64,000 nucleotides of DNA from Candidatus Wallbacteria bacterium. Lineage in GTDB: Bacteria; Muiribacteriota; UBA9980. Location of the stretch: contig JAKJHQ010000001.1 of assembly GCA_022703765.1 (NCBI GenBank), positions 145,854-209,853 of the forward strand. The letters run 5' to 3'. Below are positions 22,855-64,000 of this stretch, in pieces. A program made the position numbers and the translations under genes. Below the pieces are notes generated by a model. That model ran no database searches and had not been told where the DNA came from. It worked only from the letters and a program-made list of their open reading frames with translations. How positions within the stretch are numbered: the stretch's first letter is position 1; each line of letters starts with the position of its first letter.

Positions 22855-24039
22855 ATGCAGGATAACGAAACGTCCCTATATCAAACCGCCGTAAATTCGT
22901 TCAAAAACAATTTCCGGCAGTACACCATGATAATAGCCCTGGCGGCCATATGGATAATATTCACTTTCGCCACGAACCACATATTTATCACGCCCCGGAA
23001 CCTTTCAAATCTATTCCTGCAGACCGTTCCGGTCGCAATACTGGCCGCCGGAATGACGCTTATCATAGTCACCGGCAATATTGACCTTTCGGTCGGCGCG
23101 CTCGCCGGATTTTGCGGCGCCGTGGCCGCCGTTTTACAGGTCAAATACCAGTTCGGCACTTTCAGCGTTATCCTCGCCGCGCTCGGCGTCGGATTGGTAA
23201 TAGGCCTCTGGCACGGTTTCTGGATCGCATATCAGAAGGTCCCGGCTTTCATAGTTACGCTTTCAAGCATGCTCGCCCTGCGCGGCGCAGTGCTCGGCGT
23301 CACCGACGGAATGACCATCGGACCCATGCAGGACTCGTTCAAGGCAATCGGCCAGAAATACCTGCCGCCTTACTTTTCCGCCGGAGCCGGTTTTAACGAT
23401 TCAAGCCTCGCGGTGGCCCTGATATGCATAACGCTTTTTCTAATATTCGACTGGAACGGCCGCAGAGCCAGAATTAAATTCGGTTTCGAAGTCCTTCCAC
23501 TCAACGCCCAGATCCTCAGAATGACGCTTATAGCTCTGGCCATGGCGGCTTTCTTTTCAGTAATGATCTTCTACCAGGGCATAGCCTACAGCGTCCTGCT
23601 GCTTATCGCCATAACGGTTGTTTTCAGCTTCGTCTCCACCGACACCGTATTCGGCCGCAGGCTTTATGCGATAGGCGGAAACGCCGACGCCGCCAGGCTC
23701 TCCGGAATAAATATCGAGAAAAATATCCTGATGCTATACCTGATCTACGGCGTCCTCACCGCCGTGGCCGGAGTCGTCCTCACCGCACGCCTCAACGCCG
23801 CCACAACATCGGCCGGCACTAATATGGAACTCGACGCGATCGCCGCCGCCGTTATAGGCGGAACAAGCCTGCTCGGCGGCGAAGGTACCATCGTCGGCGC
23901 GATAATCGGCGCGCTTATAATGGCAAGCCTCGATAACGGAATGAGCCTTATGAATATGAATATCACTTACCAGTATATAATAAAGGGCATGATCCTGCTG
24001 TTCGCGGTCTGGCTCGATATTTACAACCGCAGAAAATAA
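22855..24039 (+). CDS. Sugar ABC transporter permease (XylH/GguB-like)
   Basis: Polytopic membrane protein of ~394 aa, typical of CUT2 permeases. Confidence 0.85.
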
Positions 24040-24055
24040 GCCGTTTTAAATACTT

Positions 24056-24343
24056 TGTTTTTTGATAAGGGAAGGCAAGGGACCAAAGGCCCCTTCCTTC
24101 CCTTAAAATCCCTTCCAACCCCAAATCAGCCTGACGCTTTATTAATGTGAAGTGCCGGCTTTTCTGCCGGATCTTTAATTCTGCTATGCTTTTTTCTTAA
24201 ATCGCTACAAATTCTTTTTTGATTATCCTTTATTTTCCTTAACTGCCAAAATTTCTTTTCGCTTTGTTTTTCTGTTTTTTGTTTCTGTTTTTTGCAGACG
24301 CGCGCTTACGCTCGCGTCTGCGCTGCAATAATGGCTTGCTGGT
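24056..24343 (+). repeat. Intergenic repeat element, copy 2
   Basis: Hairpin at 24069-24102 and palindrome at 24295-24321. It is collinear with copy 1. Confidence 0.7.
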
Positions 24344-24394
24344 TAGTTAACTTAAGGGTTTTATATTTACTTTTCGGTTAATCAACTTTTATTT

Positions 24395-24592
24395 AATTTG
24401 CTTTTAAGCTTGTAGCAGGGGCCAGACAAAATTTTTGAGGAGCGTTGCGGAGGCCCTGGAGCCCAGGGAGGGGCGAGAAGGGCCGAGCACGAGCGGCAAA
24501 AATCCCGGAGGGATTTTTGAACGAGTCTCCGAAAAAACTTGTCTGGTACCCTGCCCAAAACTACCAGCTAAAATACAAAAGTTCTTGTTTAA
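24395..24592. ncRNA. Candidate structured ncRNA, unit A of a tandem pair (strand undetermined)
   Basis: Long-range closing helix GCAGGGGCCAGACAA...TTGTCTGGTACCCTGC and an internal perfect hairpin AAAATCCCGGAGGGATTTT. The flanks are conserved with unit B. Confidence 0.4.
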
Positions 24593-24642
24593 AAAACGAT
24601 AAATTTTTATAAAAAAACTTTCAGGTTAAAATCCATTGTTTA

Positions 24643-24894
24643 AATTGTTTTTAAGCTTTTAGCAGGGGCCAGAATAATTTTTGAAGGGGTGTAGCGGAAT
24701 CGCCGGAGCCCAGGGATGGGCGAGATCGGGGCACGGATGCCCTAATGCAGCACGCGCCATGGACGGCAACGGCGTGCTGCGGCGCTGAGCTCAAGCGGCT
24801 AAAATCCCGGAGGGATTTTAGAACGCGTCCCCTAAAAAAATTATCTGGCGCCCTGCCCAAACTACTAGCTAAAATGCAAAAGAACCTGTTTTAA
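24643..24894. ncRNA. Candidate structured ncRNA, unit B, a paralogue of unit A with an inserted ~55-nt helix
   Basis: Same closing helix, with compensatory differences (GCAGGGGCCAGAATAA...TTATCTGGCGCCCTGC), and the same internal hairpin. The extra hairpin is GCAGCACGC..GCGTGCTGC. Confidence 0.4.
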
Positions 24895-25151
24895 GTTTTA
24901 ATAATGGTCATATAAAATTTTAAGAGCTGATACATGAAGCGTTTTAATTTATATAAAGCTCGCTGGGCGAGCCCCAGCCTTAACTATTCACTATCCACTC
25001 TGCACTATTCACTGATAAATTTCCCGAAAGAACCTGTTTTAAGTTTTAATAATGAAAATAAAACAATAATTTAACTCGTAAATTTTAATTGAAATTAAAG
25101 ATAATTCAAAGTATAATATACTGATTAATTTTATAAAATTTCGGAGGCGCA

Positions 25152-26468
25152 ATGTATATTAAAAACGAAAAACTCGGCAGCGAAAAACTTAGATTATATA
25201 ATCTTTTCCCTCGCCTCGCCGGCAATATGACCGAGTGGGCCAAACACCTGCCACGCATCGCGGCGATGAACTTCAACTCCGTTTATATCAACCCTTTTCA
25301 CTATGCCGGATTTTCGGGTTCCCTTTACAGCCCTTCGGATTACTACCGTTTTAATGATCTTTTTATCGACGGCTCTTCAAAATTAAAGCCGGTGGAGCAG
25401 CTTAAACGCTTTATAGACGAGGCGCATAAACTCAACCTGAAAGTCATAATGGACCTGGTAATAAACCACACGGCCATCGATTCGCCACTTACTAAAGAAC
25501 ACCCCGACTGGTATCTGAAAAACGCCGAAGGAAAGATAAAAAACCCCGGCGCCATGCACGACGGTAAAATGGTCCTGTGGGGCGATCTCGCCGAAATCGA
25601 TAACGCCGCTTCTAAAGATATCGATAACCTCTACGAATTCTGGCGCAAACTTGTAATGTACCACCTGGACCTCGGTTTCGACGGGTTCAGATGCGACGCC
25701 GCATACCAGGTGCCTTCTAAATTATGGAAGTTTTTAACGCGCCACGCCAAAAGCAAATATCCCGAAACTTTATTTATCGCCGAAAGCCTCGGCTGCACTA
25801 TAGAAGACGCTATCGTCCTCGCGGAATCCGGCTTCGACTACACGTTCAACAGCTCGAAATACTGGAACTTCAACGAACCATGGCTCATCAAACAATATAA
25901 AGACTCTTTCGAAAAAGTCCGCGGCGTGCCTTCTATCGGTTTCGCCGAATCGCACGATACGCCGAGGCTCTTCAACGAATTAAAAGGCAATGTGGACGCG
26001 ATTTACCAGCGCTGCCAGTTCGTTTCGTTCTTCGCCAGCGGCCTCATGGTCCCCTGCGGCCTCGAATTCGGCTTCAAAAAAGAAATGAACGTAGTCACCA
26101 CCATGCCGTCCGACTGGGAAAACACCGGCATAGACATAAGCGGTTTCTTCAAGAAAATCAACGATATCAAAAACCGTTACAAAATTTTAAACGAGGAATG
26201 CGAGCTTCAGGTGGTAGATCAACCCAACTGGATGAACGTTTTCTGCTTCAGAAAAATATCTTTCGACTCCTCCGAACGCATACTTTGCATTGTAAATAAA
26301 GACGTTCATAGCCATCAGTTCGTGCAGTTCAGCGATATAAACGCCGCCATCGGCTCCGCCGGCGAAGTTATCGACATTTCTCCGCTTTATACGCTCGAAT
26401 CCGTTAATAGAAATTTCGAATATAATCTCAGGCCCGGACAGCTGATATTGCTTTACGCAAAAAATTAA
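25152..26468 (+). CDS. GH13 family alpha-amylase-like protein (GlgE-related catalytic domain)
   Basis: GH13 regions DLVINH, GFRCDAA, IAES and FAESHD are present. The N-terminus resembles the maltosyltransferase (GlgE) catalytic domain, but the 438-aa product is too short for a full GlgE. Confidence 0.75.
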   Translation: MYIKNEKLGSEKLRLYNLFPRLAGNMTEWAKHLPRIAAMNFNSVYINPFHYAGFSGSLYSPSDYYRFNDLFIDGSSKLKPVEQLKRFIDEAHKLNLKVIMDLVINHTAIDSPLTKEHPDWYLKNAEGKIKNPGAMHDGKMVLWGDLAEIDNAASKDIDNLYEFWRKLVMYHLDLGFDGFRCDAAYQVPSKLWKFLTRHAKSKYPETLFIAESLGCTIEDAIVLAESGFDYTFNSSKYWNFNEPWLIKQYKDSFEKVRGVPSIGFAESHDTPRLFNELKGNVDAIYQRCQFVSFFASGLMVPCGLEFGFKKEMNVVTTMPSDWENTGIDISGFFKKINDIKNRYKILNEECELQVVDQPNWMNVFCFRKISFDSSERILCIVNKDVHSHQFVQFSDINAAIGSAGEVIDISPLYTLESVNRNFEYNLRPGQLILLYAKN

Positions 26469-52151: not shown

Positions 52152-52222
52152 CAGGGCCAGACGGATTCGAACCGCCATCAACGGTTTTGGAGACCGCTAT
52201 TCTACCATTGAACTATAGCCCT
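52152..52222 (-). tRNA. tRNA-Trp (anticodon CCA)
   Basis: Manual fold of AGGGCTATAGTTCAATGGTAGAATAGCGGTCTCCAAAACCGT..., giving anticodon loop CTCCAAA. CCA is not encoded. Confidence 0.85.
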
Positions 52223-52331
52223 AACATTGCAATAACAAACGCTGAACCTAATCAAGAGCGCGACGCCGCCGGCTTAAATTGCACTATCAAACCGTCTTGC
52301 GCCGCCGCAAAGTAGCCGCCAGACGGCAATG

Positions 52332-52481
52332 CTATTTAGCTTCTTTGTGTTCGGTGTGCTTGCGATCGTATTTGCAGTATTTGTTCAACACAAGGCGATC
52401 CGTCGTCTTGCGTTTGTTTTTTGTTGTCGAATATGTCCTGTTTTTGCAGGTGGTGCATTCGAGTGTAATAATTTCGCGCAT
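52332..52481 (-). CDS. rpmG: 50S ribosomal protein L33
   Basis: [49 protein letters not shown]. It is not in the ORF track because it is under 60 aa. Confidence 0.8.
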
Positions 52482-52636
52482 GATAACTCTCCTGTCTTAA
52501 CTTTTTAGTTTAATATAAACCGTATTTTTAGTTTGCTTAAGCCTGAAACGACATTTCTCTGCCGCTTCAGGCTTAATTTAATAACATCTGTTAATTATAT
52601 CACACTAATCAGCTTGTTGTCAAGCTTTTTTTAAAA

Positions 52637-53842
52637 TTAGTCGATAACTTCTGAAACGATGCCTGCGCCTACGGTTCTGCCGCCTTCGCGGATAGCGAAG
52701 CGAAGCTCTTTTTCCATAGCGATAGGCATAATGAGTTCTACGCCGATCGATACGTTATCGCCGGGCATAATCATTTCTGCGCCTTCAGGAAGTTCGATCG
52801 AGCCGGTTACGTCGGTCGTTCTGAAATAGAACTGGGGTCTGTAGCCTTTGAAGAACGGCGTATGACGGCCGCCTTCTTCTTTGGACAGTATGTAAACCTG
52901 GGCCCTGAATTTCGTGTGCGGTTTGATCGAACCGGGTTTTGCGAGAACCTGGCCGCGTTCGATGGCTTCTTTATCTACGCCGCGCAGAAGCAGACCTACG
53001 TTGTCGCCGGCCTGGCCTTCGTCGAGGAGTTTTCTGAACATTTCTACGCCCGTAACAACCGTTTTCGAGCTTTTTTCTTTGAGGCCGATAAGTTCGACTT
53101 CTTCGCCGACTTTTACTATGCCGCGTTCGATTCTGCCGGTTGCGACCGTGCCGCGGCCGGTTATCGAGAACACGTCTTCGACGGGCATTAAGAACGGTTT
53201 ATCTACTTCACGGGCGGGAAGCGGGATATAAGCGTCTACCGCGTCCATGAGCTCGTATATTCTCTTGCACCAGTCGCTTTCGTAATCGTTAGCCGTGGCG
53301 GCTTCCATAGCTTTGAGAGCGGAGCCGCGGATTATCGGTATTTCGGAGCCGGGGAATTCGTATTTGGAGAGAAGGTCGCGGACTTCGAGTTCTACCAGGT
53401 CTAACAATTCGCTGTCGTCAACCATGTCTACTTTGTTGAGGAACACTACTATTCTCGGAACGCCGACCTGGCGGGCGAGAAGGATGTGTTCACGGGTCTG
53501 GGGCATCGGGCCGTCGGCTGCCGATACTACCAGGATGGCGCCGTCCATCTGTGCCGCGCCGGTGATCATGTTTTTGATGTAATCCGCGTGGCCCGGGCAA
53601 TCAACGTGTGCGTAGTGGCGGGTTTTGGTCTGGTATTCAACGTGAGCGATAGCTATCGTGATACCGCGTTCGCGCGATTCAGGCGCTTTATCGATATCGT
53701 AGAAGTCTTTCGCTTCGGCGAAACCGATGTGCGAGAGAACTTTCGTTATAGCTGAAGTCAGCGTGGTTTTACCATGATCAACGTGTCCGATCGTGCCTAT
53801 GTTAAGATGCGGCTTATTTCTTTCGAATTTTTCTTTTGCCAT
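52637..53842 (-). CDS. tuf: Elongation factor Tu
   Basis: [29 protein letters not shown]... in a 401-aa product. Confidence 0.95.
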
Positions 53843-53907
53843 TTTAAATTGCCCTCCTTAATTTAACGGAAAATTACTTAAAAATTAAACTGTTACCTAT
53901 GATAAAA

Positions 53908-53980
53908 AGCCCACCATCGGTATTGAACCGATCACCTTATCCTTACCAAGGATACGCTCTACCATCTGAGCTAGGTGGGC
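53908..53980 (-). tRNA. tRNA-Thr (anticodon GGU)
   Basis: Manual fold, anticodon loop TTGGTAA. Confidence 0.85.
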
Positions 53981-53994
53981 TTAAGGTTAGAATA

Positions 53995-54078
53995 TGGTGG
54001 GAGAAGGATTTGAACCTTCGAAGACCGGAGGTCGACGGATTTACAGTCCGTTCCCTTTGACCACTTGGGAATCCCACC
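53995..54078 (-). tRNA. tRNA-Tyr (anticodon GUA), long variable arm
   Basis: Manual fold, anticodon loop CTGTAAA, class II variable arm. Confidence 0.85.
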
Positions 54079-54093
54079 TGAATCTCTTTTTAA

Positions 54094-54166
54094 AGCCGAC
54101 AATGGGACTCGAACCCTCAACCCCCGCATTACAAGTGCGGTGCTCTACCAATTGAGCTATGTCGGC
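54094..54166 (-). tRNA. tRNA-Thr (anticodon UGU)
   Basis: Manual fold, anticodon loop CTTGTAA. Confidence 0.85.
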
Positions 54167-63941: not shown

Positions 63942-63951
63942 ATCGTAATCC

Positions 63952-64000
63952 TTTTTTGATAAGGGAAGGCGAGGTGCCAAAGGCCCCTCCCTTCCCTTAA
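63952..64000 (+). repeat. Intergenic repeat element, copy 3 (left end only, truncated by the window)
   Basis: TTTTTTGATAAGGGAAGGCGAGGTGCCAAAGGCCCCTCCCTTCCCTTAA is collinear with the left ends of copies 1 and 2. Confidence 0.6.

Follow-up and report, generated by a model that had tools for sequence, protein, structure and literature searches.

A probable MITE family with a structured, GGA-bearing core upstream of a GH13 operon in Candidatus Wallbacteria

The locus

The DNA analysed here (the window) is a stretch of 64,000 nucleotides from a Candidatus Wallbacteria bacterium (contig JAKJHQ010000001.1, positions 145,854 to 209,853 of the forward strand). A sugar-type ATP-binding cassette (ABC) operon with Peripla_BP_4, ABC_tran and BPD_transp_2 domains stops at 24039, a GH13-FMN_bind-FAD-oxidase-Hpt-CBM53 operon starts at 25152, and the 1.1-kb intergenic spacer between them (24040-25151) holds two repeat units, A and B, which precede the GH13 operon and run in its direction. 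The original prediction took the units for candidate paralogous non-coding RNA (ncRNA) genes. They are no pair of such genes specific to this locus but belong to a dispersed, multi-copy family whose intact members carry terminal inverted repeats (TIRs) and, in three compact copies, 8-bp target-site duplications (TSDs), and they are very probably mobile repeats of the miniature inverted-repeat transposable element (MITE) type. Their description as structured, non-coding elements whose helices are kept by compensatory changes was correct, and it now rests on 40 distinct copies instead of two.

Units A and B are collinear, with 80% column identity in their alignment and one 55-nt insertion in B, which folds on itself as proposed; the closing strands, internal segments, identical hairpin and flanks that had been described were all found in place. 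Differences between the two units are compensatory: CAA/TTG in one stands against TAA/TTA in the other, A:T against T:A in the pair closing the hairpin, and a GGCCCT/AGGGCC helix against CGCC/GGCG at the same place. The units (A about 215 bp, B about 270 bp) are made up as follows.

24369-24584, + strand: unit A, whole copy in the basic form with no extra module; eroded arms, 5' ACTTTTCGGTTAATC... and 3' ...AAAATACAAAAGTTC
24415-24554, + strand: core of unit A, from the minimum-free-energy (MFE) fold and the 40-copy consensus
24415-24429 with 24539-24554, + strand: closing helix of unit A, strands GCAGGGGCCAGACAA and TTGTCTGGTACCCTGC
24432-24436 with 24532-24536, + strand: U5/A5 helix of unit A
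24439-24442 with 24527-24530, + strand: GGAG/CUCC helix of unit A
24442-24448 with 24487-24494 (P4) and 24452-24457 with 24479-24484 (P5), + strand: three-way junction of unit A
24461-24474, + strand: P6 hairpin of unit A, loop AGGGAG
24499-24517, + strand: P7 hairpin of unit A, loop GGA
24616-24886, + strand: unit B, whole copy joined head-to-tail to unit A; 5' arm AACTTTCAGGTTAAAATCC... and 3' arm ...AAAATGCAAAAGAACC
24662-24856, + strand: core of unit B, one-module form
24662-24677 with 24841-24856, + strand: closing strands of unit B, GCAGGGGCCAGAATAA and TTATCTGGCGCCCTGC
24708-24721, + strand: P6 hairpin of unit B, loop AGGGAU
24801-24819, + strand: P7 hairpin of unit B
24726-24780, + strand: optional module M, the 55-nt insert, inside helix P5 of unit B
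24728-24742, + strand: hairpin Ha of module M, loop ACGGAU
24747-24755 with 24772-24780, + strand: outer stem of hairpin Hb of module M, around the inner hairpin GCC-AUGGAC-GGC at 24756-24767
24458-24478 (A) and 24705-24725 (B), + strand: 21-mer GGAGCCCAGGGANGGGCGAGA, i.e. GGA / GCCC-AGGGAG-GGGC / GAGA, corresponding to GGAGCCCAGGGA.GGGCGAGA

The 21-mer has exactly two matches in the 64 kb, where 0.01 would be expected, and the P7 hairpin AAAATCCCGGAGGGATTTT (AAAATCCC-GGA-GGGATTTT) likewise occurs exactly twice (24499-24517 and 24801-24819; 0.06 expected). Module M contains GCAGCACGC...GCGTGCTGC. The open reading frames within the units are 55-69 aa long, and 1-nt indels among copies disrupt their frames, which rules out protein coding.

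Fold and covariation of the core

Both units fold better than their dinucleotide shuffles, on the + strand (z = -5.8 for A and -5.1 for B) and on the - strand (-4.6 and -6.9), and the MFE is -76.6 kcal/mol for the core of A and -104.6 kcal/mol for that of B. Wobble pairs give no signal of the transcribed strand, which cannot be assigned, as the original prediction had it. Covariation was assessed on 40 distinct basic copies, in a MAFFT alignment made from sequence and not fitted to structure. The RNAalifold consensus consists of a U/A helix, a GGGG/CCCC helix, a three-way junction with P4, P5 enclosing the series GGA / P6 hairpin / GAGA, and the P7 hairpin. In this alignment 98.0% of the cells are paired, compared with 89.2% in shuffles and 28-57% with slid partners, and double-sided changes amount to 127 cells (13 pairs), compared with 41 in shuffles and 2-10 with slid partners. 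Helix P5 alone exists in eight perfectly paired sequence versions, many of them reached through transversions on both sides, and the outer closing helix covaries between subfamilies (CCAGACAA/UUGUCUGG, CCAGAAUAA/UUAUCUGG, CAUACAA/UUGUAUG and GACGGAAAA/UUUUCCGGC). Compensatory changes preserve the fold of the core while the loop sequences are fixed.

Covariation of this kind could also arise at the DNA level. A selfish or neutral MITE would fold as a by-product of its inverted repeats, and template-switch correction of quasipalindromes, gene conversion between copies or the descent of subfamilies from a few master copies could mimic compensation. On the one hand, the hallmarks of a MITE are present, variation is mostly shared by subfamilies (only 16 singletons in 112 columns of 38 copies), and G.U intermediates are nearly absent, with 9 cells compared with 127 of double change. 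The module that occurs in both orientations, the inconsistent orientation to genes and the failure to find a promoter or terminator point the same way. On the other hand, C-A(N)GGAN-G loops that stay fixed above varying stems are not predicted by mutation that acts on pairing only, and the eight versions of P5, with their two-sided transversions, speak against it too. Mutations private to a copy are less frequent in columns that pair (6 in 74) than in those that do not (10 in 38), and the 21-mer is invariant in elements with unrelated ends across phyla, which points to sequence-specific selection. We regard this explanation as unlikely, though not far-fetched. A DNA-level origin of the covariation, whether by template switching or by master-copy history, does not explain the fixed loops and the cross-phylum 21-mer. 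It is likewise rather unlikely that the fold is without any RNA function.

Distribution and insertion sites

A covariance model built from 11 copies (R1), which scores the core of unit A at 166 bits (E = 9e-42) and that of unit B at 150 bits (E = 1.5e-37), gave more than 80 matches in anaerobic-digester genomes, with 65 unique cores and 39 distinct flanking contexts. The digester metagenome-assembled genome (MAG) 'bacterium ADurb.Bin243' carries full homologues on at least 10 contigs, often in tandem or truncated clusters; such clusters are found at loci L009 and L034 (homologous loci are cited by L numbers). Scanning metagenomes for the pattern of the P7 hairpin added 64 more contigs, and the A-B tandem itself recurs in L068 at 91% identity. 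Cores fall into size classes of 135-141 nt, about 193 nt and about 245 nt. The family is multi-copy and strictly intergenic, its copies stand in both orientations, and it is missing at the orthologous site in relatives. No protein family recurs within 3 kb of the copies. BLAST of unit B against plasmid and phage collections gave no match. A diverged core without recognisable TIRs was observed on a 38.8-kb viral contig (L042 4750-4884, - strand, IMGVR_UViG_3300037047_000294), beside tail-fibre-like genes.

The GH13 protein was found on 16 digester contigs, most of them identical across the gap; its nearest named relatives, in Riflebacteria and Brevinematales, share about 50% identity. In four relatives that have the GH13-FMN_bind-FAD-oxidase-Hpt operon (GH13 73-88% identical) the spacers upstream of GH13 measure just 180-360 nt, and the model has no match anywhere in the roughly 9 kb available for each. 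The absence of the element from these orthologous sites identifies it as an insertion in the lineage of the window and not as a conserved partner of the operon. Of the earlier view that the units are candidate RNA genes, the structure has stood, whereas the status of genes has not, given these empty sites and the fact that scans found no promoter or terminator of their own. A sister strain (L008) encodes an identical GH13 protein behind a single B-type unit and a diverged upstream repeat.

Two side observations concern the same gene. L008 1-900 (ENA ERZ27257431 k141_293072) presents a natural one-unit versus two-unit polymorphism. In L004 (JGI 3300025855 Ga0209717_1017543) an identical GH13 is followed by Cupin_2, CN_hydrolase, DUF1801 and DinB_2 instead of FMN_bind and the FAD oxidase; either this strain has been rearranged or the assembly is chimeric.

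The units lie upstream of the GH13 operon in its own direction and have a closing stem, and a cis-regulatory leader of that operon (a tandem riboswitch or attenuator), or the 6S-like rod that had been considered for them, could produce such an arrangement. However, between the units and the GH13 gene lies a near-consensus promoter that belongs to this gene, orthologous operons do without the element, and copies lie beside unrelated genes in either orientation. Searched with Rfam at E <= 10, the gap matched no 6S or riboswitch model, and the units form a stem that carries a three-way junction, with no rod around a central bubble. The leader or 6S reading is effectively refuted by the distribution of the family. 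The same search gave no match to signal recognition particle (SRP) RNA, RNase P RNA or tmRNA, in agreement with the original prediction, and no known family was assigned. At gathering thresholds Rfam 15 found only four tRNAs in the window, which contains four clustered tRNA genes at 52152-54166 (- strand). The element is no member of an Rfam family, and we describe it as a new family of structured MITEs.

Ends of the element

The ends were recognised in a compact, diverged subfamily from other digester species, whose non-coding members are 208-227 bp long. Their TIRs of 27 bp, which start GG(C/T)TCTT and are GGCTCTTATTCATTTCGTATGGGTAAA-like, read 5' GG(C/T)TCTTATTCATTTCGTATGGGTAAA ... TTTACCCATACAAAATGAAAAGGA(A/G)CC 3'. 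Three compact copies have both ends intact and are flanked by AT-rich TSDs of 8 bp:

L043 (218 bp): 5' TTATAATT, 3' TTATAATT, 8/8 identical
L053: 5' TAAAAAAG, 3' TAAAAAGG, 7/8 identical
L070: 5' AAATTACT, 3' AACTTACT, 7/8 identical

Each of these pairs is equalled by just 0.1-0.4% of the 8-mers in its own locus. The arms of the window units, unit A among them, can be aligned, position by position, with the TIR arms of these three copies, the terminal bases being lost. The supposed long-range closing helix of an RNA is the inner part of the inverted-repeat arms of this mobile element. According to two papers, inverted repeats that start GGCTCTTCG and direct repeats of 8 bp occur in ISL3 elements and in a MITE derived from ISL3 (PMC6305408 Table 3; PMC11448079). 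Agreement with these ends extends only to their first 7 nt, GGCTCTT, and to the duplication of 8 bp, and the affiliation suggested by the ends is a lead, not proof. With the ISL3 MITEs (the Microcystis aeruginosa MITE, PMC11448079, and ISArsp7, PMC6305408) our element shares shortness, lack of coding capacity, GGCTCTT starts, many dispersed intergenic copies and, in three compact copies, 8-bp TSDs. It differs from them in its interior, where a multi-helix core that is conserved and covaries, with GGA loops that stay fixed and modules that are optional, takes the place of anonymous filler. The copies in the window also have eroded ends inside a larger composite, and no matching transposase turned up in the fetched DNA.

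This composite, in which window-type copies usually lie, has the order U-core-D, with U as its upstream part and D as its downstream part. L017 has the same TIR as the compact copies beyond U, and L048 has it beyond D. The remaining features of the gap are the following.

24046-24388, + strand: 'U' repeat, with a long hairpin GGGAAGGC..GCCTTCCC, a hairpin GCAGACGCGCGC..GCGCGCGTCTGC and then CAATAATGGCTTGCTGG...; upstream part of the composite repeat, usually preceding window-type copies
24912-25013, + strand: 'D' remnant, ...ATAAAATTTTAAGAGC (TIR-like end), hairpin GCTCGCTGGGCGAGC (24958-24972), then CCCCAGCCTTAACTATTCACTATCCACTCTGCACTATTCACT
25014-25034, + strand: relic of the outer 3' TIR, GATAAATTTCCCGAAAGAACC; its counterpart in L048 is GATAAACTTACCCACATGAAATGAATAAGAGC
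24879-24906 and 25027-25054, + strand: 28-nt exact direct repeat AAAGAACCTGTTTTAAGTTTTAATAATG, the two copies bracketing the D remnant
25089-25117, + strand: promoter of the GH13 operon, sigma-70-type, TTGAAA-17-TATAAT, 11/12, downstream of every repeat

The U repeat is 78-83% identical to regions 5' of the cores in L009, L095, L097, L064 and L045, and the ISL3-like 5' TIR of L017 immediately precedes it. The D block also lies 3' of the cores in L009, L010, L034 (twice), L086, L092 and L093, and in L048 the 3' TIR comes next. The 28-nt repeat has the look of a joint at which two 3' arms recombined, and not that of a target-site duplication. Elsewhere in the window the U repeat, with its long GGGAAGGC..GCCTTCCC hairpin, its GCAGACGCGCGC..GCGCGCGTCTGC hairpin and a CAATAATGGCTT tail, recurs twice: the lone copy at 836-1160 has no core element after it, and of the copy at 63945-64000 the window contains just the start.

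Imperfect palindromes of 100-300 bp that are multi-copy, modular and intergenic in either orientation are familiar from ERIC/IRU, BOX (boxA-boxB(n)-boxC), Correia/NEMIS and RUP. Such repeats fold as RNA when co-transcribed and can change the stability of neighbouring mRNA. Our element resembles them in size, copy number and modularity; it differs in having no sequence relationship to them, in its host lineage and in loops that match a specific protein-binding consensus.

The ends also bear on the idea that the structure is used as single-stranded DNA, as are the hairpins of HUH/Y1 transposases (repetitive extragenic palindromes (REP) with RAYT, or IS200/IS605-like elements), a rolling-circle site or an attC-like site. 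Conserved pairing with almost no G.U, two strands that fold equally well, a module in either orientation and clustered mosaics reminiscent of bacterial interspersed mosaic elements would all fit such a use. Yet 8-bp TSDs and 27-bp TIRs of double-strand type point to a DDE transposase, and no copy is accompanied by RAYT, TnpA(Y1), an integrase or another recurrent protein. A conserved GTAG or GTTRRRY end motif is missing, the position before the stem varies (GTAGC, ATAGC, TTAGC, AGAGC), and the neighbouring genes are ordinary and of mixed orientation, unlike cassette arrays. The idea is very improbable. A retron, a type III toxin-antitoxin system, a CRISPR-like array, an integron cassette site and REP/RAYT were rejected as identities, as neither reverse transcriptase, toxin, Cas protein, integrase nor Y1 transposase is encoded within 3 kb of the copies; a CRISPR-like identity is further contradicted by the repetition of whole units and not of repeat-spacer units.

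GGA loops and the relation to CsrA

Across the family the loops of P6, Ha and Hb have the form A(N)GGAN, in which N can be any base or be missing, and a C-G pair closes them in 81 of 82 cases. Module M, whose loops in the type of unit B are C-ACGGAU-G and C-AUGGAC-G, is present zero, one or two times per element, and a second insert, where there is one, is a reverse complement of M that has diverged and shows AUCCAU loops on the + strand. On the + strand a basic copy has on average 0.95 hairpins of the form stem-A(N)GGAN-stem and a one-module copy 2.6, compared with 0.1-0.2 on the - strand and 0.10 in shuffles. Unit B shows three canonical hairpins in addition to the P7 GGA triloop and two internal-loop GGAs. 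The SELEX-derived site of CsrA is RUACARGGAUGU, whose GGA lies in a hexaloop with a closing C-G pair (PMC7652899), and to judge from their sequence the C-A(N)GGAN-G loops of the family match the CsrA/Rsm binding consensus. In two-module copies (L045, L046, L052, L063, L065, L067 and L071) the AUCCAU loops are exactly complementary to the forward AUGGAU loops, and one can imagine that the loops pair with each other (kissing) or that the design is ambisense.

Among described RNAs, the closest likeness concerns module M. Its segment 24724-24777 gives a weak, sub-threshold match to TwoAYGGAY (RF01731; 18.8 bits, E = 8.5, gathering score 43), a family of the CsrB/RsmZ clan CL00106, and the match covers model positions 49-107 only. 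TwoAYGGAY has been proposed to bind CsrA, its function being unknown (PMC4333381). Both have two adjacent hairpins with AYGGAY loops (here ACGGAU and AUGGAC, 24728-24767); the score of 18.8 bits falls short of 43, however, and here the hairpin pair is an optional insert in a larger element and also occurs reversed. CsrB/Rsm sponge small RNAs (sRNAs) have been described in Gammaproteobacteria alone (PMC7652899, PMC4333381). The CsrB/RsmX/RsmY/RsmZ RNAs of the clan have in common with our element repeated GGA in short, C-G-closed hairpin loops and a variable number of hairpins. They differ in that the element lacks a threshold match to their models, an upstream site of GacA/UvrY type, a promoter and a terminator, and in that it exists in dozens of copies with transposon-type ends and one to three canonical hairpins per copy.

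Tandem CsrB/Rsm-type paralogues are known in some pseudomonads, and the units could be true trans-acting Csr/Rsm sponge sRNA genes, with a promoter of their own in the upstream arm, gene duplication like that of rsmX/Y/Z, and ends that are incidental. Several loop GGA motifs per unit, paralogues in tandem whose 5' flanks are conserved over 55 to more than 110 nt, sub-threshold hits to CL00106 and a number of GGA hairpins as modular as in the CsrB family would suit such genes. Dozens of copies, many truncated or nested, would not, nor would intact members with TSDs and ISL3-like TIRs or the empty syntenic site of the relatives; furthermore, no promoter or terminator is recognisable, the Rfam models fail, and some copies have GGA hairpins on both strands. 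We hold this to be improbable.

The 21-mer in other phyla

The exact 21-mer GGAGCCCAGGGANGGGCGAGA has 45 matches at 33 loci in 14 genomes of the GTDB species set (one genome per species), where about one would be expected from the size of the set and the 20 specified bases. In uncultured Gammaproteobacteria it forms the core of a 51-nt module, [GGGC-AGGAC-GCCC] AAAUG CCGC [21-mer] GCGG, present in one to five tandem copies within elements that end in CTAGCAGCCTGTTGAAAAATCCTCAG inverted repeats and have CTAG or CTAA as flanks (L012, L013, L016, L020, L023-L025, L031, L033, L036, L037 and L039). One gammaproteobacterial MAG has at least 12 such loci. A copy in Desulfuromonadaceae (L040) has the same ends. 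BLAST of the gammaproteobacterial element, again with the plasmid and phage collections, found no match. In a Bacillota MAG (JAMCQP010000089, L029 3193-3357) the 21-mer occurs at a sole locus, in an array of 3 x 53 nt with CGAC-AGGAU-GUCG and GCCC-AGGGAG-GGGC hairpins. This array lies between a gene end and a consensus promoter, matches CsrB weakly (15.7 bits, threshold 71; E = 0.033) and appears, from its sequence, a better candidate for a true Csr-type sRNA than the window units. Between genomes the stem of the first hairpin covaries (GGGC/GCCC, GGAC/GUCC, GCACA/UGUGC, CGAC/GUCG, GUGC/GCAC) while its GGA loop is constant. No 21-mer locus outside the lineage of the window reaches any Rfam threshold; at E <= 10, the Bacillota array and a five-module gammaproteobacterial array were assigned to no family, and across these arrays and the gap the sole hits were weak ones, to TwoAYGGAY and CsrB. 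In two gammaproteobacterial MAGs (L027 2437-2644 and L015 2431-2699) a single 21-mer module was seen about 100-160 nt from a long-arm tRNA gene of 86-88 nt.

Unrelated MITE families in several phyla (ISL3-type in the lineage of the window, CTAGCAGCCTGTTGAAAAA-ended in Gammaproteobacteria and Desulfuromonadaceae, possibly also the stand-alone array of Bacillota) might have captured and spread one and the same CsrA/Rsm decoy RNA module, consisting of GGA / GCCC-AGGGAN-GGGC / GAGA with covarying C-A(N)GGAN-G hairpins. This proposal is doubtful. If it were true, mobile elements would distribute post-transcriptional control sites or sponges through genomes, including a lineage far from Gammaproteobacteria.

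Discussion

The reading we favour, with a probability of roughly 0.6, is that A and B are adjacent, head-to-tail, end-eroded copies of a MITE in a graveyard of repeat pieces (U, A, B, the D remnant and the TIR relic), and that between its arms this element carries a core whose fold is constrained. An ISL3-family transposase would move the copies in trans and unequal recombination would multiply them locally; the latter would explain both the A-B tandem and the one-unit sister strain. The element would consist of arms and a core of 135-250 nt with the closing stem, the three-way junction, P5 with GGA/P6/GAGA, and P7. Once transcribed, which in the window could happen on the + strand if transcription of the ABC operon runs on into it, the core may act as RNA and present C-A(N)GGAN-G hairpins, one in unit A and three in unit B, together with further unpaired GGAs. 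These hairpins are putative sites for a protein of CsrA/Rsm type, and they could either titrate it or place neighbouring transcripts under its control. The part of the reading that gives the core an RNA-level, CsrA-type protein-binding role is tentative and, taken by itself, less likely than not.

Several observations weigh against this reading, and they concern both of its parts. Regarding mobility, a recognisable TSD is present in three of six compact copies and missing in the other three, a fuzzy search of the window found no intact TIR, and no TSD can be demonstrated for A, B or other window-type copies. As the flanks of these copies are other conserved repeats, we infer the mobility of the window copies from their relatives. 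A fuzzy TIR search of the roughly 0.8 Mb of fetched DNA met solely MITE-associated ends and no transposase with matching ends, which is why the ISL3 match counts only as a lead. Regarding the RNA, consensus scans found no element-borne sigma-70 promoter or intrinsic terminator (other promoter types being outside the scan), and tblastn with four CsrA proteins and FliW found neither csrA nor fliW in the window or in any fetched locus. No CsrB, Rsm or TwoAYGGAY model of Rfam reaches its threshold in the window and 18 related loci. Unit A has a single canonical hairpin beside the P7 GGA triloop and two internal-loop GGAs. In two-module copies GGA-loop hairpins occur on both strands (2.2 vs 2.0), and the reversed module fits insertion at the DNA level as well as an RNA role. 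With 9 G.U cells and about 13 A.C mismatches, neither strand is favoured. Finally, window-type copies have a co-directional downstream gene in a ratio of 16:6, whereas compact copies have a convergent gene in a ratio of 9:2; since the biases of the subfamilies are opposite, orientation permits no conclusion about strand or function.

What does this family teach beyond its own locus? For annotation, a convincing, compensatory 'ncRNA' at one locus can be a mobile repeat, and a census of copies, ends and empty sites is what separates the two. The family is unusual for MITEs in that its interior is constrained too, its stems covarying while the GGA loops and the 21-nt scaffold remain constant. If the core does not function as RNA, the family would offer a clean test case of DNA-level processes that mimic RNA covariation. 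If it does work as RNA, these would be transposable elements that carry protein-binding RNA as cargo, and they would provide a first lead to Csr-type decoys beyond Gammaproteobacteria.

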